Notes: generated by a model not told the origin, from the sequence alone. A DNA stretch of 10,994 bases from Candidatus Eiseniibacteriota bacterium (GCA_034440375.1 JAWXBZ010000175.1:1-10994); one strand, 5' to 3'; counted from the first letter of the stretch, positions 1-10,994 are shown. Translations and numbers: made by a program.

Positions 1-1610
1 GAATCCCCTCCCCCTTCGACGACACCGGGCCGCACCCGCTGGCCCGCGAGGCGGCACTGGCCCAGCAGGAGGAGCTGCGCTCCGGCTGGATTGCGCCGGG
101 CGTCTCGACCGACATCCTCGATCGTCCCGAGGGTGGCAAGATGTTCGGGGTCCTGATCGTGACCGACGACTCAAACAAGGTTGGCGTGATGAGGGCCTTC
201 TCGGGTCAGCTCGGTGCCAGCTGGGAACTTCCGGGGTGGGCACCACCCCTGTTCGACGCAGCGGCGCGGGGGATGGTGGAACCGGAATCCATTGCGCGGA
301 TCAAGATGTTGACCGATGCCATGGACGATCTCGCACGAGGTTCCCTGATGCGGGAGGAGCGCCAGGCCACCGAGGCGGAGCGCCTGGCCTGCGCCGCCGC
401 GCGGGCCGAACTGAAACTGCCCTTCGAGGAGCGTCGCCGGGAGCGACAGGCTCGCCGGGCAGCGATTCCAATCGATGACCGACCGGCCCGTCGTCACCTC
501 GACAACGAGAGCCGTCGCGATGACATCGAACTCCGCGGAGAGCTCCTGATGCTCCGGGAGTCGCACGCCGGCCGGCTGCGTGTGCTTGGGCGCCTTGATC
601 GGCGCCTCCAGGCAATGGAACGCCTGCGACGGGCGATCTCCCGACGGGTGATGCAGCATATCCATGACACCTATCGCCTGACGAACCGACTCGGGCAATC
701 CATCACGCTGCGCGAACTGTTCGCGCCGGGCGAACCGCCGTGGGGCTCGGGGGACTGTGCGGCGCCGAAGTTGATCGCTGCCGCGCTGCGGGAAAAACTC
801 ACGCCGATCGCGCTGGCCGAGTTCTGGTGGGGCGCGCCGCCGCCGGGCGGTGGGCGGGTGGAGGGGGCGTTCTATCCCGCCTGCACGCCGAAGTGCGGGC
901 CGATCCTCCCCTTTCTGCTCGACGGGCTCGACGTGGCGCCCCGCCGGACCTGGAAGCCGGCGGTGGCCGCGGCCGACCATCTCGACATCCGATACGATGA
1001 CGGCCGCGTCGTCATTCTCTCGAAGCCGGTCGGGCTCCTTTCCGTGCCCGCCCGCGACGAATCCATTTCCGATTCAGTGTTCGCGCGCCTCCAGCGGCGC
1101 TACCCCGCCGCTGCCGGCCCTCTGCTCGTCCACCGACTCGACCTGGATACGTCCGGCCTGCTCGTGGCGGCGCTCGACGCGATCACGCACCGCGATCTGC
1201 AAGCGCAGTTCGAGGCGCGCACCGTTCGGAAACGCTACGTGGCCTGGCTGGACGGCGAACCCGGCCCCGACCGCGGGACGATCTCCCTGCCGATCCGCGT
1301 TGACCTGGACCAGCGGCCGCGGCAGATCGTCGACTTCGTCCATGGCAAGGAGGCGATCACCGATTGGAAGGTGCTCGAGCGGCGCGGCGGTCGGACGAAG
1401 GTGGCCCTTTTCCCGCGCACCGGCCGGACGCACCAGCTCCGCGTGCACGCGGCGCACCGGGACGGCCTCAACGCGCCGATTGTCGGCGATCGCCTTTACG
1501 GGACGGCCGGCGAGCGGTTGATGCTCCACGCGGAATCGCTGATACTCCGGCGCCCGGACGGCCGCCGGCTCACGGTGACCGATCCGGCGCCGTTCGACGA
1601 CCGTCTCTGA
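1..1610 (+). CDS. rluA: RluA-family RNA pseudouridine synthase, long form with N-terminal extension (5'-partial)
   Basis: The C-terminal domain has KPVGLLSVP, catalytic [10 protein letters not shown] (His codon at 1131), [24 protein letters not shown] and RLMLHA. The frame is open from base 3 ([18 protein letters not shown]...GGKMFGVL), so ATG 141 is probably internal and the true start lies upstream of the window. Confidence 0.93.
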
Positions 1611-2197: not shown

Positions 2198-2691
2198 GGG
2201 GCATGCGATCTCTTTCCGCATCAGGCCCGGCGAGCCGCACGACGACCCAGACTAACGCGGACCGCCCCCGCGGCCCCGGCCTCGCCATCTATTTCCTGGT
2301 AGGCCTTGCCTTCGGCGTCATCCTCGTCAAGGGCGAAGTGATTTCCTGGTTTCGCATTCAGGAAATGTTCCGCTTCCAGGGCTTTCACATGTTCGGCATC
2401 TTCATGACCGCGCTGCCGGTGGCCATCCTGAGCGTTCAGTTCCTGAAGCGCACCGGCGCCCGCACCACCACGGGAGCGCGGATCACACTGCCGCCGAAGA
2501 AACTTGGCTCGGGCGTCCGCTACCTGGCCGGCGGCTCGGTCTTCGGCCTCGGCTGGGCCCTGACCGGTGCCTGCCCCGGGCCTCTCTTCGCGCTCCTCGG
2601 GAGCGGCGTCGGAGTCATCGCGGTGGCGATCGTGTCGGCGCTGGCGGGGACGTGGCTCTACGGGTGGATGAGGCCGCGGCTGCCGCACTGA
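2194..2691 (+). CDS. Second YeeE/YedE-family membrane protein (partner subunit)
   Basis: SWFRIQEMFRFQGFHMFG and FGLGWALTGACPGP motifs. Start is either GTG 2194 (GTGA overlap with the upstream stop, GGGAG at 2183-2187) or ATG 2203. Confidence 0.88.
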   Translation: MRGMRSLSASGPASRTTTQTNADRPRGPGLAIYFLVGLAFGVILVKGEVISWFRIQEMFRFQGFHMFGIFMTALPVAILSVQFLKRTGARTTTGARITLPPKKLGSGVRYLAGGSVFGLGWALTGACPGPLFALLGSGVGVIAVAIVSALAGTWLYGWMRPRLPH

Positions 2692-3839
2692 GTTGCCACC
2701 AGCTCCGCCAGGGCCCAGAACATCCACGCCTGCCCCCATCGGATCTGTTTCACGTCGTTCCGCCACCATGCCCCGCGCTGAAAGGTGAAGTGCCGGCCGT
2801 TCCACATGTGGCGCATCGTCCACTCGGCCGTGCGGTGAGCCTTGGCGCGGGCACCGGGGTCGAGGCGCTCGAGGGCGAGCCAGGTGAGGATGGCCTGGGC
2901 GCAGCAGTGGATGTCGATCGGCCAGTGACTGTTGTCGTAATAGGATGGCGCGCCGTCGGACTTGAAGAAGGTCGCATCCCAGTAGCGGTAGGCCCGCTCG
3001 AGGGCGGCGTCCATCGACGTGTCGCCGGTCGTCCGGCGGTAGTCTTCGAGGGCCACCAGGTTGTAGCCGGTGTGGAAATTATCAACCCAGGCCTGGTTGG
3101 CTGATTCGCCGTAGGGCCACGAGCCGTTCGGCAGGAGGCGATTGACCGAGAAGCCCATCGACTCGGCCGCGAAGGCCCCCAGCCGGGTGTCGTTCGTCCG
3201 CATCGCGGAGCGTGCCAGGAGCGCGGCGCCGAGCATGTTCACGTTGTGCACGCGCGTGTTCGTCGTCGGGGTGTAAGTGATGTAGCCGGTTCCACCCTCG
3301 GTGCGCGACAGCGCCCCCATCACAAAGCGTGACACCTCGTCCGGCACGGCCGCGGCCGGCCCCCCATCCGTGCGCCGCTCGAAGGCCATCGCGCCGAAGA
3401 CCGAGCAGATGAGATTGGGACAATCACGCGGCTGGAAGAAGGCGCGGCTCTGCCAGTCGTAGGGGTAGCCCCAGCAGATCTCGTCCCAGCCGGGCGAACG
3501 GAGCGCGGTCAGCCGTTCGAGGAGATCGGCCCCGCGGCGGTGCCAGGCCTCACGCGCCGGGCCTTCCGCCGTGGCGGCCAGCCGCCACGCCCCCAGAGCA
3601 AAGAGCGACACCCCCTTCGCCAGCACTTCCGGCTTCTGGAAGGTGAGCGGCCGCAGGTTGATCGGCGTCCGCTTGACCAGCTGGATCCAGGCCTGGCGAG
3701 CCAGCGGAATTCGGAAGAAGGGCGTGGCGCGGAAGAGCCGACCGTTCAGGCCGTCATACGGATCCCACCCGGCGAAGCCCGATCGCTCGGCGTCGGCCCA
3801 GACGGTGTCGAGGACGCGGCGGAAATCCGTGTCAGCCAT
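2658..3839 (-). CDS. Conserved hypothetical protein of polysaccharide loci, predicted (alpha/alpha) helical-barrel fold (six-hairpin glycosidase / C5-epimerase-like), 393 aa
   Basis: Aromatic/His/Asp-rich motifs GWDPYDGLN, CWGYPYDWQSRAF, RVHNVN, GSWPYG, WVDNFHTGYNL, PIDIHCCAQ and IRWGQAWM, separated by amphipathic helices. It starts 3 bp after the oxidoreductase stop. The CDS is secure; fold and function are inferred. Confidence 0.75.
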   Translation of the reverse strand: MADTDFRRVLDTVWADAERSGFAGWDPYDGLNGRLFRATPFFRIPLARQAWIQLVKRTPINLRPLTFQKPEVLAKGVSLFALGAWRLAATAEGPAREAWHRRGADLLERLTALRSPGWDEICWGYPYDWQSRAFFQPRDCPNLICSVFGAMAFERRTDGGPAAAVPDEVSRFVMGALSRTEGGTGYITYTPTTNTRVHNVNMLGAALLARSAMRTNDTRLGAFAAESMGFSVNRLLPNGSWPYGESANQAWVDNFHTGYNLVALEDYRRTTGDTSMDAALERAYRYWDATFFKSDGAPSYYDNSHWPIDIHCCAQAILTWLALERLDPGARAKAHRTAEWTMRHMWNGRHFTFQRGAWWRNDVKQIRWGQAWMFWALAELVATQCGSRGLIHP

Positions 3840-3842
3840 TCA

Positions 3843-5999
3843 CTACCAGCGAACCTCGATTTCGCGCCCCTCGCGCATCGATTCGAGCGCGCCGAACATG
3901 GTCGAAGCCCCCGCCAGCAGTTGATCCCTCGGAATCGGCATCGGGGTTCTCTTCGCCACCATGTCGAGGAACGCGCCCACCTGCGGAGCCTGCCCCTTGT
4001 CCTGGCTCGAACTGCCGATCGACTTCCGGTTTCCGCCGCTCATGACGAATCCAGTCTTGAAGTCATCGATGACGGCGACTCGCCCCGCCCCGAACGATTC
4101 GACACGTTCCTTGGGAAAGGCCGGATCGCCGGTGGCGGTATAAAGGATCGAGCCGATGGATCCGTTCTGAAACCCCATGTCCAGGATCCAGGAGTCGCTC
4201 GCATCCTGCGCCCCACCGCCCAGCCCACGCGCATGCACGCGCTCGGGCAGTGAACCGGCCAGGTAGATGAGGAAGTCGATGAAGTGACATCCCTCGCCGA
4301 TCAACCGCCCGCCTCCCTGCTCCGGATCACGCGTCCAGTGGTTGGCCGGCAGGGGTCCGGCGTTGACGCGATAGATCATCGTCTGGGTGGCCGCGCTTTG
4401 CATGAACTCGCGGGCGGCGATGGCGGTTGGCGCGAAGCGGCGATTGAAGCCGACCTGAACCCTCGCACTTGCGTCAGCAAGTGCGAGCGCCACCTGTTCC
4501 AGTTCGCCCCGATTCATGACGAGGGGTTTCTCGACAAAGACCGCCTTGCCCTTCGCCAACGCTGCCAGCACATACTTCGCATGCAGATGATGCCGCGTCG
4601 CGATGATCACCGCGTTGATTCGATCATTGTTGATGATCTCGTCCGGATCAGTGGCGGCGATGGCGAAGCCGCTCCGCTCGGCCACCTTGCGCGCGGTAAC
4701 GCCGCTGGAAGTAGCAACGGCGGCCAGCTCAACATCGGTCCGCCCCTTCAGGTGCGGCAGCAGCATCGCCTGGGCGTAGTTGCCGGCGCCGATGACGCCA
4801 AGGACAACCTTTCCGGAAGTGGAACCAGTGCCGACCGTCCCGACGGCAATCGACCGCTGCATCCGCGAGGCCGCATCCGGGTATTCGATCAGCACCGCGA
4901 GGAAGCGCTCGCCCGTCTTTCCGGTGATGACGTCATAAGCCTTCAGCGCATCGTCGATCTTGAACGCATGGGTCGTCAGCAGATCCAGGTTGAGCCGCTT
5001 CGCGGCCAGTAGATCAAGAAACGCCTCGAAATTTCGTCCCTCGGTCCATCGGACGTAGCCGATCGGATAATCGACGCCGGCCTCTTCATACAACGCGTCG
5101 TAACGCCCCGGCCCGTAGGATCGGCTGAGCCGGAACTGGAGATCCTTGGCAAAATAGAGATCGCGCGGAAGGTCCATGCCGGTGACGCCGACCATGACGA
5201 CCGTGGCCCGATCGCGGGCGATTCTCGCGGCCAGTTCGACCGGATCGTTGGTCGACGCGGCGGCGGTGATGAGAATTGCATCGACGCCGAATCCGTCGGT
5301 CATGGCAGCGGATATGGCCTCGACATCATCGATCGTGCGGTTCGCCACGCGATCGGCACCACTCTGGAGCGCCAGCTCACACGCCGCTGGATTCACATCG
5401 ATTCCAAGCACCTTGCAGCCGGCCGCCTTCAACAGCTGCACCGTCAACTGTCCAACCAGCCCGAGCCCGATGACCGCCACCCGCTCGCCGAGCTTCACGT
5501 CCGCCTGGCGAACTCCCTGCAGCGCAATGACGCCGACCGTCGTGAAGCAGGCATGCTTCAATTCCACGCCGTCCGGCACGCGGGCGCACAGGTTGGCCGG
5601 CACGACGACATAGTCGGCGTGACTGGCCTTGTCCTGACCACCGCAGGCAACCTGATCGCCCACCTGAAAGCCCTCAACTCCCTCGCCGACTTCAATCATC
5701 ACACCGGCCGTCGAATAGCCGAGCGTCTTCCAGTTGTCGAGACGCGTCTGCACCTTCTGCCAGGCCGCGACGATACCTTCCTTGCGGGCGGAGTCGATGA
5801 CCTTCTTCACGAGATCGGGGCGGGCCCTGGCCTTGCCGATCAGGCTCTTCTGCCCGGTCGAAACCGTGGAGCGTTCTGTGCCGGCGGAGACCAGGCTCCA
5901 GGCATTGCGTACGAGAACATGCCCGGCCCTGGCGCGCGGCGTCGGCACATCGACAATCTTGATCTCGCCCGTCTTGAAATCCTGAATGAGCTGTTTCAT
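3843..5999 (-). CDS. Bi-domain oxidoreductase: N-terminal MDR (zinc-binding ADH superfamily) + C-terminal Gfo/Idh/MocA domain, 718 aa
   Basis: Start MKQLIQD at ATG 5999 (ATGA overlap with the asnB stop). MDR part has SLVSAGTE, LGYSTAG, GDQVAC, Rossmann GLGLVG and SRSYGPGRYD. Gfo/Idh/MocA part has GAGNYA, TRHHLH, VFVEKP, VGFNRRF and GGGRLIGEGCHFID. Confidence 0.92.
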   Translation of the reverse strand: MKQLIQDFKTGEIKIVDVPTPRARAGHVLVRNAWSLVSAGTERSTVSTGQKSLIGKARARPDLVKKVIDSARKEGIVAAWQKVQTRLDNWKTLGYSTAGVMIEVGEGVEGFQVGDQVACGGQDKASHADYVVVPANLCARVPDGVELKHACFTTVGVIALQGVRQADVKLGERVAVIGLGLVGQLTVQLLKAAGCKVLGIDVNPAACELALQSGADRVANRTIDDVEAISAAMTDGFGVDAILITAAASTNDPVELAARIARDRATVVMVGVTGMDLPRDLYFAKDLQFRLSRSYGPGRYDALYEEAGVDYPIGYVRWTEGRNFEAFLDLLAAKRLNLDLLTTHAFKIDDALKAYDVITGKTGERFLAVLIEYPDAASRMQRSIAVGTVGTGSTSGKVVLGVIGAGNYAQAMLLPHLKGRTDVELAAVATSSGVTARKVAERSGFAIAATDPDEIINNDRINAVIIATRHHLHAKYVLAALAKGKAVFVEKPLVMNRGELEQVALALADASARVQVGFNRRFAPTAIAAREFMQSAATQTMIYRVNAGPLPANHWTRDPEQGGGRLIGEGCHFIDFLIYLAGSLPERVHARGLGGGAQDASDSWILDMGFQNGSIGSILYTATGDPAFPKERVESFGAGRVAVIDDFKTGFVMSGGNRKSIGSSSQDKGQAPQVGAFLDMVAKRTPMPIPRDQLLAGASTMFGALESMREGREIEVRW
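4462..4487. repeat. Perfect 11-bp inverted repeat with 4-nt loop inside the oxidoreductase CDS
   Basis: CTCGCACTTGC-gtca-GCAAGTGCGAG read directly from the sequence. Confidence 0.9.
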
Positions 6000-7936
6000 G
6001 CACCCCCAAGCGGCGAGCCGGAATCGGGACGATCGATGAACGTCCGCATCCAGAGTTCCAGCGTCATGAATGTCCAGATTCGATAGGCATGGTCGCGCCG
6101 GCCGGAACGGTCCTCGTCGATGAGGCGCCGCACTTCCGCCGGATTCAGCAGGCCGCGTTTTTTCAGTGTTGATTCGGACAGGAGATCGTCGACCATCTCC
6201 CGGAGATCGTTCTTGACCCATGAGCGGGTCGGGCCGCCGAAGCCGGTTTTCGGCCGTTTCACGACCGCTTCCGGGACCCAGGGCGCCACTGCCTGCTTGA
6301 AGACCCATTTCGAGCGGCTGCCCCGCACCTTCAAGTCCGGCGGCATCGTAGCGGCCAGCTCGACAATCCGGTAGTCGAGAACCGGCACGCGGACTTCCGT
6401 CCCTGCCGCCATCGATGCCTTGTCCGAATAGGTCAGATTGAGGCATGGCAGGAACGTCTTGAGATCAACGTAGAGCAGCCGATTCAGGGGATCGCGCGCG
6501 CCCGCCTCGGCCAGGTGATGCTCGTGTTCGATCAAGACGTCCTCGGTCGGCAGATGAGGTGCCACGACGGCGCGCAGTTCCGCCGACGTGTAGTAGCCGC
6601 AATAGCCGAAGTAGCGATGGGCGTACGGCAACTCGGCCGACGCGGTAAATTTCTGGAGATTGCGCCGAAGCGCGAGTCCCGGCCCCGGCGCGGAACCCGG
6701 CAGCGCATCCGACAGCGTTCGCACACCCCGTCGCAGCAACCCGGGCCAGCGCAAGTACTCCTCGGCAAGCTGAACGGCATGATGCCGCCGATAGCCGCCG
6801 AACACTTCTTCCGCGCCGACACCGGAGAGCATCACCGTGGCCTTCTCGCGCGAGGCGCGGCAGATCAGGTACGTGGAAATGGCCGCCGCATCCGCCACCG
6901 GCTCGTCCATGTGCCAGACGATCTTCGGCAACAGTTCCGCCACGTTCGGCTCGACGATGATTTCGTGGTAGTCGAGGTCCGGCGTCTGGCCGGCCACCAT
7001 GCGGGCGTAGGTGAGATCATCCGGCGCAAACTCGTAGCGCTGGTCCTGCCCGCGGAAACCGACGGCATAGGCGATGAGTTTTCCCTGCGTGTGACGACGC
7101 ATCGCCGCGAGAATCGCGCTGGAATCAACGCCTCCCGAAAGGAACGCGCCGACCGGCACATCCGACACCAGCCGCAGCCGGACGCTGTCGTCCATCAAGG
7201 CACGCAATTCCTCGATCCAGGCCGATTCCGACTTCGCATGATCCTCGGCCGCCGGCACATCCCACCAGCGGAGGATTTCGGTTCGGCCGTTCTGCCGCAC
7301 CAGGCGATGACCGGGTTCGAGTTTGTATATCCCCTCGAAAAGCGTCTCCGGGCCGGGCACCCAGAGGAAGTTGAGGAAGTGGGCCAGCCGGCGTTCATTC
7401 AGCCGGCGCGGCACGCCGGGAATTGCCAGCAACGACTTGACCTCGGAAGCGAAGGCCAGCCCCCACGCCCCTTCCGTCCAGTAAAGCGGCTTCACGCCCA
7501 CGCGATCGCGGACGAGATGAAGCGCCTTCGCCGCCTCGTCCCACATGCCGAAGGCAAACATCCCGTTGAAGCGATGGAGCGACGAGGGCCCCCATTCCAG
7601 CCAGGCCTCGAGCATCACCTCGGTGTCCGAATCGCTGTTGAAGCGATACCCCTTCCCTTCCAGTTCGCGGCGAACGTCATGAAAATTGAAGACCTCGCCG
7701 TTGTAGGTCATCGTCCGCTGGTTGTCGTGGCTGGTCATCGGCTGATGGCCGCGCGGGGAGAGATCGAGGATGGAGAGCCGTCGATGGCCGAGGGCCAGTT
7801 CGCCTCCATTGCCGTCGACCGGGGCATACCAGGAGCCCCGATCATCGGGGCCACGATGGCTCATCAAGTCGAGGGCCGTCTCGAACAAAGGCCGATCGAT
7901 CGGGCCGGGGCGAATCCAGCCCAGAATGCCGCACAT
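5996..7936 (-). CDS. asnB: Asparagine synthase (glutamine-hydrolysing) family amidotransferase, probably glycan-modifying, 646 aa
   Basis: N-terminal MCGI (Ntn Cys), HRGPD, GHRRLSILDLS, QPM, YNGEVFN, DTEV, RDRVGVKPLY, PP-loop LSGGVDSS, LSGVGAEEVFGGY, DKASMA, EVRVP and RPKTGF. The polysaccharide-locus context suggests a non-aspartate substrate. Confidence 0.95.
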   Translation of the reverse strand: MCGILGWIRPGPIDRPLFETALDLMSHRGPDDRGSWYAPVDGNGGELALGHRRLSILDLSPRGHQPMTSHDNQRTMTYNGEVFNFHDVRRELEGKGYRFNSDSDTEVMLEAWLEWGPSSLHRFNGMFAFGMWDEAAKALHLVRDRVGVKPLYWTEGAWGLAFASEVKSLLAIPGVPRRLNERRLAHFLNFLWVPGPETLFEGIYKLEPGHRLVRQNGRTEILRWWDVPAAEDHAKSESAWIEELRALMDDSVRLRLVSDVPVGAFLSGGVDSSAILAAMRRHTQGKLIAYAVGFRGQDQRYEFAPDDLTYARMVAGQTPDLDYHEIIVEPNVAELLPKIVWHMDEPVADAAAISTYLICRASREKATVMLSGVGAEEVFGGYRRHHAVQLAEEYLRWPGLLRRGVRTLSDALPGSAPGPGLALRRNLQKFTASAELPYAHRYFGYCGYYTSAELRAVVAPHLPTEDVLIEHEHHLAEAGARDPLNRLLYVDLKTFLPCLNLTYSDKASMAAGTEVRVPVLDYRIVELAATMPPDLKVRGSRSKWVFKQAVAPWVPEAVVKRPKTGFGGPTRSWVKNDLREMVDDLLSESTLKKRGLLNPAEVRRLIDEDRSGRRDHAYRIWTFMTLELWMRTFIDRPDSGSPLGGA

Positions 7937-7978
7937 GGGGGTTTATCGATCTCCGTGAGCGCCGTTTAAGAAGACGCT

Positions 7979-8006
7979 TTGAATCAGACGCATAAGTCGC
8001 TAAACT
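7979..8006 (+). promoter_or_regulatory. Putative sigma70-type promoter for the GT-C/flippase pair
   Basis: TTGAAT (7979-7984), 16-nt spacer, TAAACT (8001-8006) in the AT-richer intergenic gap. The predicted TSS near 8012-8013 is only a few nt before ATG 8017, which has no Shine-Dalgarno. Confidence 0.5.
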
Positions 8007-8019
8007 GTTTCGACTTATG
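7991..8019. repeat. 29-bp inverted repeat (operator-like or 5'-UTR hairpin)
   Basis: CATAAGTCG-ctaaactgttt-CGACTTATG: perfect 9-bp arms, with further internal dyad AAAC-t-GTTT. The right arm includes the ATG at 8017. Confidence 0.85.
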
Positions 8020-9372
8020 GAGCACGCAAGTCTACGCCGCCTTCCGGTTGACGTCAACCGAATCCAGATTGATGCCCCGCCCCGCGACTTCCGGCTGGCC
8101 TGGGCCCTCTTCCTCGGAGCCCTGATCGTTCGGCTGGCCTATATCGCACTCAGGGACCTGGGCAACGCGGTACCGACCGGCACCGACGCCGTCTCTTACG
8201 ATGTCTTCGCCCGGGCCATCCTCGCCGGCAGCAGCTGGCTTACCCACCCGGGCGCCGAGCTGTTCCGACCTCCCGGCTTTCCGGTGATACTGGCCGCTCA
8301 GTACGCCCTCTTTTGCGGCAACATGGATGTCGTCCAGCTGAGCCAGGCCTTCGTCGGCGCCGCGTCGGTGGTCTTGCTCTTCGAATTCGGGCGCCGCCAC
8401 GTCGATCGAAAGGCGGCGCTCCTGGCCGCCGCCTGGCTGATGATCAATCCGCTCCACCTCGACTTCGCCGGCAAACTCCTGCGCGAAAACTGGCTGGTGC
8501 TGCTGAATATCGCTGTCATCGCGTCCTTGCTCGCCAAGGACGGCCTGGCGACGAAGGGGCTGATCCGAACCGCCCTCCTGTTCACGCTCCTCATGCACAT
8601 CGACTCACGCTACGTCTTCCACCTCCCGTTTTTCGCCCTCTATATCTCATTGGCGAAGCCATCCAAACAGGCACTCCTCGGCTGGTCACGCCTCACCGCC
8701 TCCATCAAACCAACCGCCCTCTTTCTACTGGTAGTCCTCGCCGCCAGCGCCCCCTGGGCGATCCGCAATGCGGTGGCGTATGACCGCTTCGTGTTGATCG
8801 ACCCGCGCGCGCTCGACCGCTGGGCAAACAAGGCGAAAGCCAGCGTGGCCAGGGAAGCCGAATCAAGGGCCCTGCCGATGGCCGGCTTTGAAGCCCGGAA
8901 GACCGCGCAGTTCGATTCACTGACGACCGAGGAACAGGCTGCCTTCCGCGCCGGCATCCGGCCCGGCTCCGGCGCGTTGACCAAGGCCACATTCAACCTG
9001 ACTGAATTCTGGCGCCTCTACCACAATCACAGCGAGTATCGCCCATTCCCCGACGCCCGATTCGCCAGCCGCTGGAGCCTCGAGCACAACGTGTCGAGCC
9101 TTGTCTTCATGGGTCTGCTCCTGCCGTTCTTCGTTATCGGCGTTGTCCGCGGCGTCCAAACGGCGGACCGGGTCATCCTCGTCATGACCGCCTTTATCAT
9201 TGTCCACACGCTGTTGCATGTCGTCGTCCACAGCGTCACGCGCTATCGTCTGCCCGTGGAGCCCTTCTACGCGCTGATCGCCATGCAGTCGATCGTCAAG
9301 CAGTCGCGCGTCATGCAGTCGCTCCTCGCAAAGGGACGTGCGACACCCCCGGCACCGGAAGTGGCCGCATGA
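8017..9372 (+). CDS. GT-C fold integral membrane glycosyltransferase (ArnT / PMT-like, GT83/GT39-type), 451 aa
   Basis: First TM helix is followed by loop GTDAVSYD and FRPPGFP. It has many TM segments plus LLRENW, PWAIRNA and C-terminal RYRLPVEP, the pattern typical of lipid-phosphate-sugar-dependent transferases. Confidence 0.82.
   Translation: MEHASLRRLPVDVNRIQIDAPPRDFRLAWALFLGALIVRLAYIALRDLGNAVPTGTDAVSYDVFARAILAGSSWLTHPGAELFRPPGFPVILAAQYALFCGNMDVVQLSQAFVGAASVVLLFEFGRRHVDRKAALLAAAWLMINPLHLDFAGKLLRENWLVLLNIAVIASLLAKDGLATKGLIRTALLFTLLMHIDSRYVFHLPFFALYISLAKPSKQALLGWSRLTASIKPTALFLLVVLAASAPWAIRNAVAYDRFVLIDPRALDRWANKAKASVAREAESRALPMAGFEARKTAQFDSLTTEEQAAFRAGIRPGSGALTKATFNLTEFWRLYHNHSEYRPFPDARFASRWSLEHNVSSLVFMGLLLPFFVIGVVRGVQTADRVILVMTAFIIVHTLLHVVVHSVTRYRLPVEPFYALIAMQSIVKQSRVMQSLLAKGRATPPAPEVAA
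8029..8057 (-). promoter_or_regulatory. Putative sigma70-type promoter for the asnB-oxidoreductase-barrel operon
   Basis: Minus strand reads TTGACG (8057-8052), exactly 17 nt, then TAGACT (8034-8029). This is a near-consensus match in high-GC DNA; predicted TSS near 8022. Confidence 0.65.
8045..8060. repeat. Perfect 16-bp palindrome overlapping the predicted -35 box
   Basis: CGGTTGACGTCAACCG is its own reverse complement. Confidence 0.9.
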
Positions 9373-10400
9373 CCACCGCCCTGAAGCCCACGAGAAACCG
9401 GATGCCCCGCCGACTCATCCTGACCGCCGTCCTCACCATCGGCCTCGTCGCACTCCTCCTCACCCAGGTCTCGATCGGCAGGATCGTTGACATGATCAAG
9501 GGCGCCGACATCAAACTGTTTCTGCTGGCTGTCTTCGCGTATGCCCTCTCCTACGTCGGCCGCACGTGGCGCTGGAAGCTCCTGACGCCGGGCCACGACC
9601 TTGGATGGGGCACGCTGTTCGGCATCTCGACCGTGCACAACTTCATGCTCCGCGCCCTCCCATCCAAGCTGGGCGAAGCCAGCTACCTGGTCCTCATGCG
9701 CGCCCGCGGCGTCTCCGGCACCGAAGCGCTGGCCGCGCTGGTCGTCGCCCGCATCTACGACACGATCGCCGCACTTCTCTTTTTTGGACTGTCGATCTTC
9801 CTGGCCCACACCACCCTGGCCGGTTCGACTGCCGCCACGTTGGCCGTCACCCTGATCATCCTGTTGATTTCCGGCTTCGCCGTGCTCAAGGGCAGCCTGA
9901 TGATTCGGTGGATCACCACCCTGGCGCATCGACTGGTCGCCTCGAATCGCCTCCCGGCCTTCCTGACCGGTCACGGCATCCGCCGCCGAATGGCCAGCCT
10001 CGAGCAACATCTCGAGTCCATTCAATCCGGAAGGCAAGCCCCCCTGATCCTGGCCAACACCCTCCTGATCTGGACCCCGTCATTCGCCATGACCTGGTGG
10101 CTCCTCGATGCCTTCGGCCACCCTCAGAGCTTCTGGGGAACGGTGTTCGCCTCCACGCTGGGAATCGTGGCCACGCTCCTGCCGGTGGGAACGCTGGGCA
10201 ACTTCGGCACGCAGGAAATGGGTTGGGCCCTGGGGATGACCCTCCTCGGCGTCGACCGCGAGACCGCGCTGGCCACCGGCTTCTCGACTCACCTGGTGGG
10301 TTTCGTCCTGGCGGGATTGTTCGCGCTGATCGGCGCGCCGTTCAATGCGGTAGGAGGGCGGAACTCTGCCGGGAATCCTCAGCCAATAACGCGGGCGTAG
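9369..10400 (+). CDS. Lysylphosphatidylglycerol-synthase TM domain (UPF0104/YbhN-like) flippase-like membrane protein, 343 aa
   Basis: RTWRWKLL, LPSKLGEA, ARIYD and LPVGTLGNFGTQE motifs with about 8 hydrophobic segments. ATGA overlap with the GT-C gene. No cytoplasmic aminoacyl-transferase domain. Confidence 0.85.
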   Translation: MTTALKPTRNRMPRRLILTAVLTIGLVALLLTQVSIGRIVDMIKGADIKLFLLAVFAYALSYVGRTWRWKLLTPGHDLGWGTLFGISTVHNFMLRALPSKLGEASYLVLMRARGVSGTEALAALVVARIYDTIAALLFFGLSIFLAHTTLAGSTAATLAVTLIILLISGFAVLKGSLMIRWITTLAHRLVASNRLPAFLTGHGIRRRMASLEQHLESIQSGRQAPLILANTLLIWTPSFAMTWWLLDAFGHPQSFWGTVFASTLGIVATLLPVGTLGNFGTQEMGWALGMTLLGVDRETALATGFSTHLVGFVLAGLFALIGAPFNAVGGRNSAGNPQPITRA

Positions 10401-10994
10401 AGCGCTTCCAGCGACTCCAGCGCCGGCCTCGCCGCGAATTCGGCCTCCATCTTCTTCCGACCACGCAATCCCAGATCCCGCGCCGTCGCCGCATCCTTGT
10501 GAGCCTCATCCATCGCCCAGGCCAGCATCTCGGCATCCCCATTCGGCACCAGCCACCCCGTCTGATTCGGCAGGACCAGTTCCGGCAGCCCACCGATGGC
10601 CGACGCCACCACCGGCACTCCAAGCGCAAACGATTCCAGCACCGCATAGGGCTGATTCTCGTACCACTCGCTCGGTACGACCACCGCTCGTGCCGCACGA
10701 ATCGCTTCGTGAAGCGCCTCTTCCGCAAGATGTCCCAGAAATTCGACATGAAGGTTTTCCGCGCGCGCCCGCGCACGGAGTTCCGCTTCGAGCGGCCCGG
10801 TCCCGGCCACTCGAAGCCGAAGATGCGGTCGCCGCCCCAGAGCGTTGAACAGTGTCGACAACCCCTTCTCTTTCGAGAGGCGCCCCGCATACAACAGGTG
10901 CTCCCCCGACTCCCCCGCCGCCACCCGATACCGCTCCAGGTTCAGGAAGTAAGGCCGCACTTGAACCCGGTCCGCCGGCAACCCATGCGCCACC
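10379..10994 (-). CDS. GT4-family (GT-B) glycosyltransferase, C-terminal part (5'-partial)
   Basis: YAGRLSKEKGL, VAGTGP, VVVPSEWYENQPYAVLESFALGVPVVASAIGGLPE (EX7E motif) and TGWLV. The frame runs off the window end. Confidence 0.93.
   Translation of the reverse strand, partial: VAHGLPADRVQVRPYFLNLERYRVAAGESGEHLLYAGRLSKEKGLSTLFNALGRRPHLRLRVAGTGPLEAELRARARAENLHVEFLGHLAEEALHEAIRAARAVVVPSEWYENQPYAVLESFALGVPVVASAIGGLPELVLPNQTGWLVPNGDAEMLAWAMDEAHKDAATARDLGLRGRKKMEAEFAARPALESLEALYARVIG

Follow-up and report, generated by a model that had tools for sequence, protein, structure and literature searches.

Which surface sugar would be made by an operon that joins a glutamine-dependent amidotransferase, a double dehydrogenase and an unnamed helical-barrel protein? 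This question is raised by a contig of Candidatus Eiseniibacteriota bacterium (GCA_034440375.1, JAWXBZ010000175.1:1-10994). The contig, called the window here, was analysed at its whole length of 10,994 bp; it is contig C175 of a 3.96-Mb metagenome-assembled genome (G000) that consists of 264 contigs and is 93.7% complete. Its minus strand carries an AsnB-type glutamine-dependent amidotransferase of 646 amino acids (aa) at 5996-7936 with Asn_synthase and GATase_7 domains (P0003, called AsnB here), a bi-domain oxidoreductase of 718 aa at 3843-5999 whose Pfam domains form an MDR/ADH-like half and a Gfo/Idh/MocA half (P0001), and a VpsJ-family (alpha/alpha)6-barrel protein of 393 aa at 2658-3839, assigned by homology and predicted fold (P0002, the barrel). 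In the present study we propose, with moderate confidence, that the three genes form a three-enzyme cassette by which a D-configured N-acetylhexosaminuronic acid (HexNAcA) of a surface polysaccharide would be converted to an L-configured uronamide. Homologies, gene coupling, synteny and co-evolution are observed, and from them we infer the chemical steps, their order and the level, nucleotide sugar or lipid-linked, at which they would take place.

The sugars L-N-acetylgalactosaminuronic acid (L-GalNAcA) and L-N-acetylgulosaminuronic acid (L-GulNAcA) and their amides occur in emulsan, in exopolysaccharide I (EPS I) of Ralstonia, in Pseudomonas O-antigens and in the Vibrio biofilm matrix, and to our knowledge no enzyme that sets the L-configuration of either has been characterised. 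The parts of the operon have published but unproven functional proposals, and their roles have so far been proposed separately. The original prediction, which was made from the sequence of the window, had called the module undescribed. This goes too far for the parts, for which proposals exist (WeeE/WeeF, and VpsJ in 2026), and stands for the combination: no description of it, or of the partner dichotomy reported below, was found in the literature searched, subscription journals not being covered.

The three genes and their homologues

The genes are tightly coupled, as had been predicted. The coordinates of the open reading frames (ORFs) and the sequence itself bear out an ATGA overlap at 5996-5999, which joins the AsnB and bi-domain genes, and a 3-bp gap at 3840-3842 (TAG-tga-ATG) between the bi-domain and barrel genes. 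The 718 aa of the oxidoreductase are counted from the ATG inside the overlap; the longest listed ORF for this gene, 3843-6446 (867 aa), was judged to be an over-extension in DNA of 63-69% GC.

By sequence comparison, P0002 is a full-length homologue of VpsJ of the Vibrio polysaccharide (VPS) cluster. Aligned over 367 aa with the protein that V. mimicus has at the VpsJ position (L187:9001-10149), it shows 33% identity (E 7e-57); the comparison was made with this orthologue, as V. cholerae VpsJ was absent from the retrieved loci. The vps-I/rbm region of V. mimicus, which is one of the 79 loci obtained with a VpsJ-like query protein of Vibrio sp., has, by Pfam, the order UGDH-family protein, family 4 glycosyltransferase (GT4), AMP-binding VpsH-like protein, GT4, barrel, WecG-type GT26, RbmA, beta-helix protein and beta-prism lectin. 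In addition, a vps-like cluster in Pseudoalteromonas has at the VpsJ position a protein to which P0002 is 31% identical over 98% of the length; this protein is annotated as 'aspartate-semialdehyde dehydrogenase', and the VpsJ paper reports the same link with this name (PMC13463779). VpsJ shares with P0002 the size, the (alpha/alpha)6-barrel fold and the conserved residues; in the family, at least 95% of 153 members keep 39 positions, among which Asp, His, Tyr, Arg and Trp are frequent. The surroundings differ, as VpsJ adjoins the GT26 protein VpsK and the glycine-adding VpsH without a bi-domain gene, whereas P0002 follows the bi-domain enzyme and AsnB. In the VpsJ paper, a 2026 study of VPS assembly published in mBio, a vpsJ deletion in Vibrio cholerae accumulates the unmodified lipid-linked disaccharide of Glc and N-acetylmannosaminuronic acid (Glc-ManNAcA), and the authors put VpsJ forward as 'a new class of epimerase' that would convert ManNAcA at C5 into L-GulNAcA; its predicted fold resembles 2-epimerases, and it is proposed to act on the lipid-linked disaccharide (PMC13463779). 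By analogy, we propose that P0002 may be a uronate C5-epimerase.

The barrel family is large. Among 8000 candidates scored, 1575 proteins reached E <= 0.001, nearly all of them unnamed, and at least 586 barrel stretches were confirmed in species-representative genomes. Archaeal megaplasmids (Haloferax, Halomarina, Methanosarcina and others) also carry full-length barrel homologues of 25-34% identity, some of which are annotated 'antibiotic ABC transporter permease'; this looks like another misannotation.

P0001 consists, in Pfam, of ADH_N/ADH_zinc_N followed by the N- and C-terminal GFO_IDH_MocA domains. Both Rossmann motifs, the EKP and GGGR..GE.CH..D motifs and the family-specific stretch S292-N323 are kept in at least 95% of 203 relatives, the EKP lysine of P0001 being K491; judged by these motifs, both NAD(P) domains are intact and belong to families that oxidise or reduce ring hydroxyls. 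At the positions which we take to be the metal ligands of zinc alcohol dehydrogenases, P0001 reads S38-x-G-T-E and G-Y, and by our reading the MDR half would be zinc-less. A tblastn search of plasmid and megaplasmid records with P0001 gave 140 records covering at least 80% of the protein. Its homologue in the eps operon of Ralstonia solanacearum has the same two-domain architecture of about 710 aa and is 41% identical over 99-100% of the length. The gene for this homologue stands after wecB and wecC, with the gene of a 'heparinase II/III-family protein' directly next, and a Sphingobium plasmid has the same order of wecB-wecC, bi-domain and heparinase II/III-family genes. That the bi-domain enzyme might stand in for WecC in C6 dehydrogenation was considered and rejected, because wecC co-occurs with it in Ralstonia, Sphingobium and several barrel loci.

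The galactosaminuronic acid of EPS I is L-configured. Its occurrence in EPS I is documented (PMC3759889), and the adjacent Acinetobacter genes WeeE/WeeF, renamed GnlA/GnlB, were previously postulated to make UDP-L-GalNAcA (PMC9676051); GnlB has been described in a 2026 K-locus preprint as structurally heparinase-like, 'suggesting a different functional role' (bioRxiv 10.64898/2026.07.20.739706). We infer that WeeE/GnlA is a bi-domain protein of the same architecture as P0001. The Ralstonia eps operon pairs the oxidoreductase with a heparinase II/III-like protein, and the WeeE/WeeF genes would do the same, whereas the operon of the window pairs it with a VpsJ-type barrel. The absence of a heparinase-like protein from this operon, which had been noted in the original prediction, was borne out: none of the three operon proteins matched Pfam PF07940 or PF16889 (heparinase II/III-like). 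The barrel was also considered as a truncated heparinase N-domain, and this was rejected after a profile comparison (hhalign) with the Ralstonia heparinase-like protein, which gave a probability of 0.1%.

Exchange of the partner protein

Four samples of loci were compared. Sample 1 was anchored on the barrel alignment and holds the best 80 of at least 586 confirmed stretches (L001-L080). Sample 2, anchored on a VpsJ-like protein of Vibrio sp., has 79 loci, mostly of Proteobacteria (L171-L249); sample 3, anchored on P0001, has 78 loci, mostly of Anaerolineae/Chloroflexota; and sample 4, anchored on the Ralstonia bi-domain protein, has 80 loci, of which 79 rows entered the tree described below. 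A true bi-domain gene was present in 40/80 loci of sample 1 and lay within 300 bp upstream of the barrel gene in 23 (one more was missed through ORF over-extension); GT26 was found in 37/80, WecB in 32/80, wecC-like genes in 9/80 and weak heparinase-like matches in 2/80. In sample 2 the bi-domain gene, where present (24/79), was always just upstream of the barrel gene, and the loci held GT26 (76/79), wecC-like (45/79), VpsH/CapK-like (44/79) and WecB (26/79) genes. Sample 3 had a heparinase-like gene downstream in 55/78 loci, a barrel in 2/78, which are the two closest relatives, and neither in 21/78. No barrel was present in sample 4 (0/80), where a clear heparinase-like partner was found in 27/79 loci and a downstream protein of about 548 aa in 35 more (about 62/79); a representative of the latter (L332:6893-8569) matched Hepar_II_III_C (3e-45) and Hepar_II_III_N (6e-19). 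The counts of samples 3 and 4 agree with the statement, made in the original prediction, that such bi-domain proteins are often paired with a heparinase II/III-like protein. There was no locus in the four samples in which both partner types adjoined the oxidoreductase.

Several side observations were made on these loci. The proteins of about 548 aa (35 loci in L260-L337) form a second, divergent heparinase II/III-like subfamily, which phmmer with the Ralstonia and Sphingobium queries barely detects and Pfam detects strongly. In L304, L309, L318, L321, L328, L336 and L258 a UDP-GlcNAc 2-epimerase gene stands directly after the bi-domain gene (L336: Epimerase_2 9e-98), and in 4 further loci a methyltransferase gene does so; partner genes may lie further away. 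A gene for a DsbD_N-like protein of about 160 aa lies between the bi-domain and barrel genes in L015, L016, L017, L019, L022, L026, L027 and L061 (Blastocatellia and others), and a Bac_transf gene comes next in most of these loci. P0031 (506 aa) was considered as a natural fusion of a Gfo C-terminal domain and a barrel; it was rejected, as its low-complexity, out-of-frame-looking stretches point to a probably frameshifted assembly.

A tree of 203 bi-domain proteins was built with FastTree from 71 heparinase-linked, 56 barrel-linked and 76 unlabelled rows, many of the last having a divergent heparinase-like partner. The partner type (heparinase-like or barrel) needs 1 change on this tree, and the separating branch has an SH-like support of 92. 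The barrel side comprises 60 rows, of which 4 are unlabelled; for 3 of these, the locus contains a barrel at another place. P0001 falls in this barrel-partner clade, separate from the heparinase-linked oxidoreductases of Ralstonia type. Samples 1 and 2 hold the barrel by construction; their oxidoreductases could still have mixed with the heparinase-linked ones, but do not. These findings indicate that the oxidoreductase co-evolves with its partner, and that the barrel takes the place of the heparinase-like partner and is not an extra component. The operon is a variant of the bi-domain pair: the heparinase-like partner has given way to a VpsJ-family barrel, and AsnB has been added. The clean split of the partners on the tree gives independent comparative support to the reading that both partners would be C5-epimerases and that the oxidoreductase would bring about a C3 inversion.

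The main rival to two separate inversions is a concerted 3,5-epimerase, which we regard as unlikely. In such an enzyme the Gfo/Idh/MocA half would oxidise C4, the barrel (elsewhere the heparinase-like partner) would be the acid/base catalyst and the MDR half would re-reduce C4; the C4 ketone would acidify the C3 and C5 protons, and the product and the AsnB step would be unchanged. The strict one-to-one coupling and co-evolution of oxidoreductase and partner speak for this mechanism, as do the 3-bp gap with translational coupling of the two genes and the presence of two separate redox domains, which fit an oxidise-then-reduce cycle. Furthermore, the VpsJ authors speculate that C4 oxidation could aid removal of the C5 proton (PMC13463779). 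Against it, VpsJ-type barrels stand without a bi-domain gene in 55/79 loci of sample 2 and 40/80 of sample 1, including the Vibrio vps cluster, whose product is C5-epimerised, and since barrels are common without the bi-domain gene, the barrel seems to work without the oxidoreductase. The carbon acted on is likewise not readable from sequence: the solved structures are only remotely related to P0001 (best E about 1e-15 for either half), and matches so remote leave its regiochemistry unreadable.

The amidotransferase

AsnB matches Asn_synthase (2e-97) and GATase_7 (9e-42) in Pfam. It starts with MCGI (Cys2 as nucleophile) and has a visible SGGVDSS loop, and by inspection its catalytic motifs are intact. 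Among the NCBIfam models it passed only TIGR01536 (asparagine synthase), with 445.5 bits against a cut-off of 267.1; it stayed below the cut-off of TIGR03108 (XrtA/PEP-CTERM amidotransferase), with 505.9 vs 816.9 bits. In O-antigen loci, AsnB-like proteins such as WbpS and WbtH are implicated in uronamide formation. Likened by their description, they have the same Ntn-glutaminase plus Asn_synthase architecture within a glycan locus, and differ from the operon enzyme in that its acceptor sugar would be L-configured. We propose that AsnB would amidate the carboxyl of a uronic acid.

The gene was found in 10/80 loci of sample 1, 8 of these with a bi-domain gene, in 8/79 of sample 2, in 0/78 of sample 3 and in 21/80 of sample 4, where it is listed before the bi-domain gene; the heparinase-linked loci with AsnB just upstream include L262 and L283. 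In the barrel loci of samples 1 and 2 together, AsnB accompanied 14/64 loci with a bi-domain gene vs 4/95 without (Fisher p = 0.0008), and strong VpsH homologues accompanied 0/64 with vs 21/95 without (p = 1e-5); both p-values overstate the case because the loci are related to each other. VpsH (AMP-binding/CapK-like) adds glycine to the same carboxyl after the VpsJ step and would be a functional analogue of AsnB in its proposed role, although its fold is unrelated and it adds glycine, not ammonia. The lack of any barrel locus with both a strong VpsH-type gene and the bi-domain gene suggests that tailoring may take either of two routes once the barrel has acted. AsnB, bi-domain and barrel genes stand together in this order in 8/159 barrel loci of samples 1 and 2, which belong, where a phylum is named, to Thermodesulfobacteriota, Verrucomicrobiota, Chloroflexota, Bacteroidota, Pseudomonadota and Nitrospirota. 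Cultured, non-pathogenic carriers include Polaromonas jejuensis NBRC 106434 (L226) and Pollutibacter soli JS81 (L070) for the trio, and Pseudomonas psychrophila DSM 17535 (L220), Pontibacter aquaedesilientis JH31 (L053) and Marinobacter maroccanus N4 (L234) for the pair alone. AsnB is an accessory in a minority of loci and stands outside the core pair.

It is therefore fitting to ask whether AsnB acts on the uronic acid at all. It could be a maker of asparagine, or could amidate or ligate something else in the glycan pathway, so that only the pair would tailor the sugar; we consider this improbable. TIGR01536 as the only model passed is in keeping with such a role, as are the absence of AsnB from most pairs, its frequent gain or loss (19 changes on the tree, which has 21 carriers) and its lack in the whole of the Anaerolineae/Chloroflexota-rich sample 3. 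What stands against it is the ATGA overlap with the oxidoreductase gene, the recurrence of the same order in the six phyla just named and the 21 Ralstonia-anchored loci with AsnB. In addition, the genome of the window encodes 3 AsnB paralogues, the operon copy included, and the two others could serve asparagine synthesis.

Fold of the barrel protein

P0002 had no match in Pfam or NCBIfam, and among chains of the Protein Data Bank 0 hits were found at E <= 10. From a 50-sequence alignment, AlphaFold2 (AF2) predicted an (alpha/alpha)6 barrel with a pLDDT of 93.7 and a pTM of 0.93; with this model and the Pfam matches of the other two proteins, the three families named in the original prediction (amidotransferase, double dehydrogenase and helical barrel) were all recovered. 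The top Foldseek matches of the model were cellobiose and GlcNAc 2-epimerases and glycoside hydrolase family 76 (GH76), with TM 0.5-0.63. In an exhaustive structural search, the Z scores were 31 (GH76), 28-29 (cellobiose 2-epimerases) and 25 (GH88/GH105). In 50 relatives, weak Pfam matches were obtained to Pec_lyase (33), to the C-terminus of D-glucuronyl C5-epimerase (PF06662; 10/50, best 6.4e-6, P0002 itself having none), GH88 (9), GH127 (9) and GH76 (7).

With such a fold, the barrel could instead be a hydrolase or lyase (of the GH76, GH88, GH105 or pectate lyase-like kind) that trims the polysaccharide, in a cluster that does not tailor precursors. We judge this very improbable. The GH76 mannanases as best fold match and the weak family matches of the relatives, Pec_lyase in 33/50 above all, are what it can claim. 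Read by eye, the sequence of P0002 has no hydrophobic N-terminal stretch, and the protein is therefore probably cytoplasmic; the barrel genes are embedded among nucleotide-sugar and glycosyltransferase genes; and the protein is homologous to VpsJ, the deletion of which blocks assembly of the repeat unit at the ManNAcA stage (PMC13463779).

Related genomes and precursor supply

Of the 41 genomes searched, with the window's own included, 7 have a barrel match, and 3 of these matches are strong (62-65% identity). Among the matches listed, the closest named records are labelled Candidatus Eisenbacteria. In G001, which belongs to the same family, a 3.2-kb contig consists of the barrel gene and the bi-domain gene, the latter being cut off by the contig end. 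Another contig of G001 starts with a 78%-identical AsnB gene; it is followed, in divergent orientation, by a GT-C-like and a flippase-like gene, 61% and 60% identical to those of the window, so that the family appears to have kept the arrangement as a whole. The original prediction had asked for a check of whether the three families occur together beyond chance, and the same gene order does recur, both across phyla and in this same-family genome. In G006, which is of the same order (L088, C3; region 13478-16076), the pair lies downstream of a gene for an MBOAT (AlgI-like) O-acyltransferase and one for a 388-aa protein with no family match; the MBOAT gene hints at O-acetylation of the same glycan. 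A 1132-aa open frame around the G006 barrel was rejected as an over-extension, the bi-domain gene being in another frame.

As to the supply of precursors, the genome of the window has two wecB genes, of which the copy on C235 is above the TIGR00236 cut-off, and a TuaD-like UDP-glucose dehydrogenase. A dehydrogenase gene on C47 (L254) is about equally WecC-like (282 bits) and TviB-like (242 bits), and it is followed by a TviC-like C4-epimerase gene; from these two genes, the genome can probably also make sugars of UDP-GalNAcA type. D-ManNAcA is the most likely substrate of the operon, as it is favoured by the family-wide context, and GlcNAcA or GalNAcA is possible.

Proposed pathway

According to the proposed pathway, WecB and a nucleotide-sugar 6-dehydrogenase, whose genes are located in other parts of the genome, would supply the likely substrate D-ManNAcA. 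The barrel would then invert C5, the proton beside the carboxylate being taken and re-added, so that D-ManNAcA becomes L-GulNAcA. The bi-domain enzyme would invert a ring hydroxyl, most likely at C3, by way of a 3-keto intermediate, one NAD(P) domain oxidising to the ketone and the other reducing it from the opposite face; L-GulNAcA would become L-GalNAcA. Finally AsnB, with glutamine and ATP, would turn the C6 carboxyl into a primary amide, giving an L-HexNAc-uronamide. Amidation is placed after epimerisation by analogy with the addition of glycine in VPS, which requires the VpsJ step first. The choice of C3 follows from a comparison of loci: VpsJ loci without the oxidoreductase give L-GulNAcA and loci with the oxidoreductase and the heparinase-like protein are tied to L-GalNAcA, two sugars that differ at C3 only. 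This takes up the earlier suggestion of an L-hexosaminuronamide formed by epimerisation and amidation, whose direction gains support from the VpsJ homology and the Ralstonia-type oxidoreductase; for its chemistry the pathway above is our inferred version.

Glucuronyl C5-epimerase is related to heparinase II. With either partner fold, enzymes are known that take the C5 proton off uronates, lyases being one example, and by this analogy both could serve for epimerisation. A wider reading, which we hold tentatively, is that these loci share a two-protein system for L-galacto and L-gulo HexNAcA in place of a single epimerase of the short-chain dehydrogenase/reductase (SDR) type. The bi-domain protein would be an 'oxidise-then-reduce' C3 epimerase, and a cofactor-free C5-epimerase would have been recruited twice from alpha-helical folds of carbohydrate enzymes that are unrelated to each other, the heparinase II/III lyase fold (GnlB/WeeF type) in one case and the VpsJ barrel in the other; AsnB would be a plug-in leading to L-HexNAc-uronamides. 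The 3,5-epimerisations of the GDP-mannose 3,5-epimerase and RmlC types produce the same net change from D-manno to L-galacto. Each of those is, however, the work of one SDR or cupin enzyme on a neutral or 4-keto sugar, whereas the operon would use two unrelated proteins on a uronic acid.

Several points weigh against the proposed cassette. In the fold comparisons of P0002 no single family stands out, and the highest match, GH76 mannanase, is not an epimerase; the weak Pfam matches of its relatives are spread over lyase, epimerase and hydrolase families, and P0002 has none. The role of VpsJ rests on genetics and elimination, the assignment of WeeE/WeeF is a postulate, and we know of no enzyme of the three families that has been assayed and of no biochemistry for any of the steps. 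The linkage of AsnB is scattered on the tree and missing from most pairs; G006 has the pair only, its best AsnB being 36% identical and elsewhere in the genome. The counts of loci are not phylogenetically independent, and samples 1 and 2 were collected by means of the barrel itself. No GT26 (PF03808) was found in the genome of the window, 93.7% complete as it is, though GT26 accompanies most barrel genes and both G006 and G009 have it. Nor was a clear UDP-ManNAc dehydrogenase found there, the C47 gene being ambiguous between WecC and TviB, and for these two reasons the starting uronic acid is uncertain. Lastly, a contig of 11 kb leaves the rest of the locus unseen.

Neighbouring genes

Divergent from the operon lies a gene for a polytopic membrane protein, possibly GT-C-like (8017-9372, plus strand), whose PMT_2 match of 20.8 bits is below the cut-off of 26.1. 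It is followed by a flippase-like membrane protein (LPG_synthase_TM/TIGR00374; 9369-10400, plus strand) with 105.7 bits to PF03706 (cut-off 33.4) and 62.8 bits, above cut-off, to TIGR00374, and by the C-terminal part of a GT4 glycosyltransferase (10379-10993, minus strand; Glycos_transf_1 2e-34), which runs off the contig end. Of the neighbours named in the original prediction, the flippase-like and GT4 genes were thus found as described, and the GT-C assignment has the sub-threshold PMT_2 match only. At the other end, a small Sulf_transp/DUF6691 membrane protein, identified by family match (about 2230-2691, plus strand), is convergent with the barrel gene; the 3' ends overlap by 34 bp (2658-2691), and no terminator-like site was found between the two. 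To its left is an RluA-type pseudouridine synthase, also identified by family match (141-1610, plus strand), whose catalytic domain comprises residues about 280-485 only; an Arg/Glu-rich N-terminal extension of about 280 aa has no family match.

The near-consensus promoter that had been predicted for the operon did not withstand analysis. Upstream of AsnB, beyond the divergent intergenic region (7937-8016), the best and sole sigma-70-like match is TTGACG-17-TAGACT at 8057-8029 on the minus strand, inside the start of the divergent gene; it agrees at 9/12 positions, and with 1 site found vs 0.8 expected from shuffled sequence, such sites are not above chance, so that the region 7937-8057 gives weak evidence of a promoter. 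That the three genes are chance neighbours of unrelated functions, for which nothing but this weak promoter evidence speaks, is most improbable in view of the ATGA overlap, the 3-bp spacing, the recurrence of pair and trio across phyla and the one partner switch on the tree.

Conclusion

The operon indicates that an oxidoreductase of the WeeE/GnlA type, as we take it to be, can have a VpsJ-type barrel as its partner in place of a heparinase-like protein. Barrels of this family are now annotated as 'hypothetical' or 'aspartate-semialdehyde dehydrogenase', and a correct label would improve the prediction of glycans widely. Where the annotation was vague, the analysis also provides a definite list of tests that can be made in vitro. 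If the two-protein reading is true, it would settle the roles of VpsJ, GnlA and GnlB, and it would provide a gene signature that predicts rare L-uronic sugars in thousands of uncultured bacteria.

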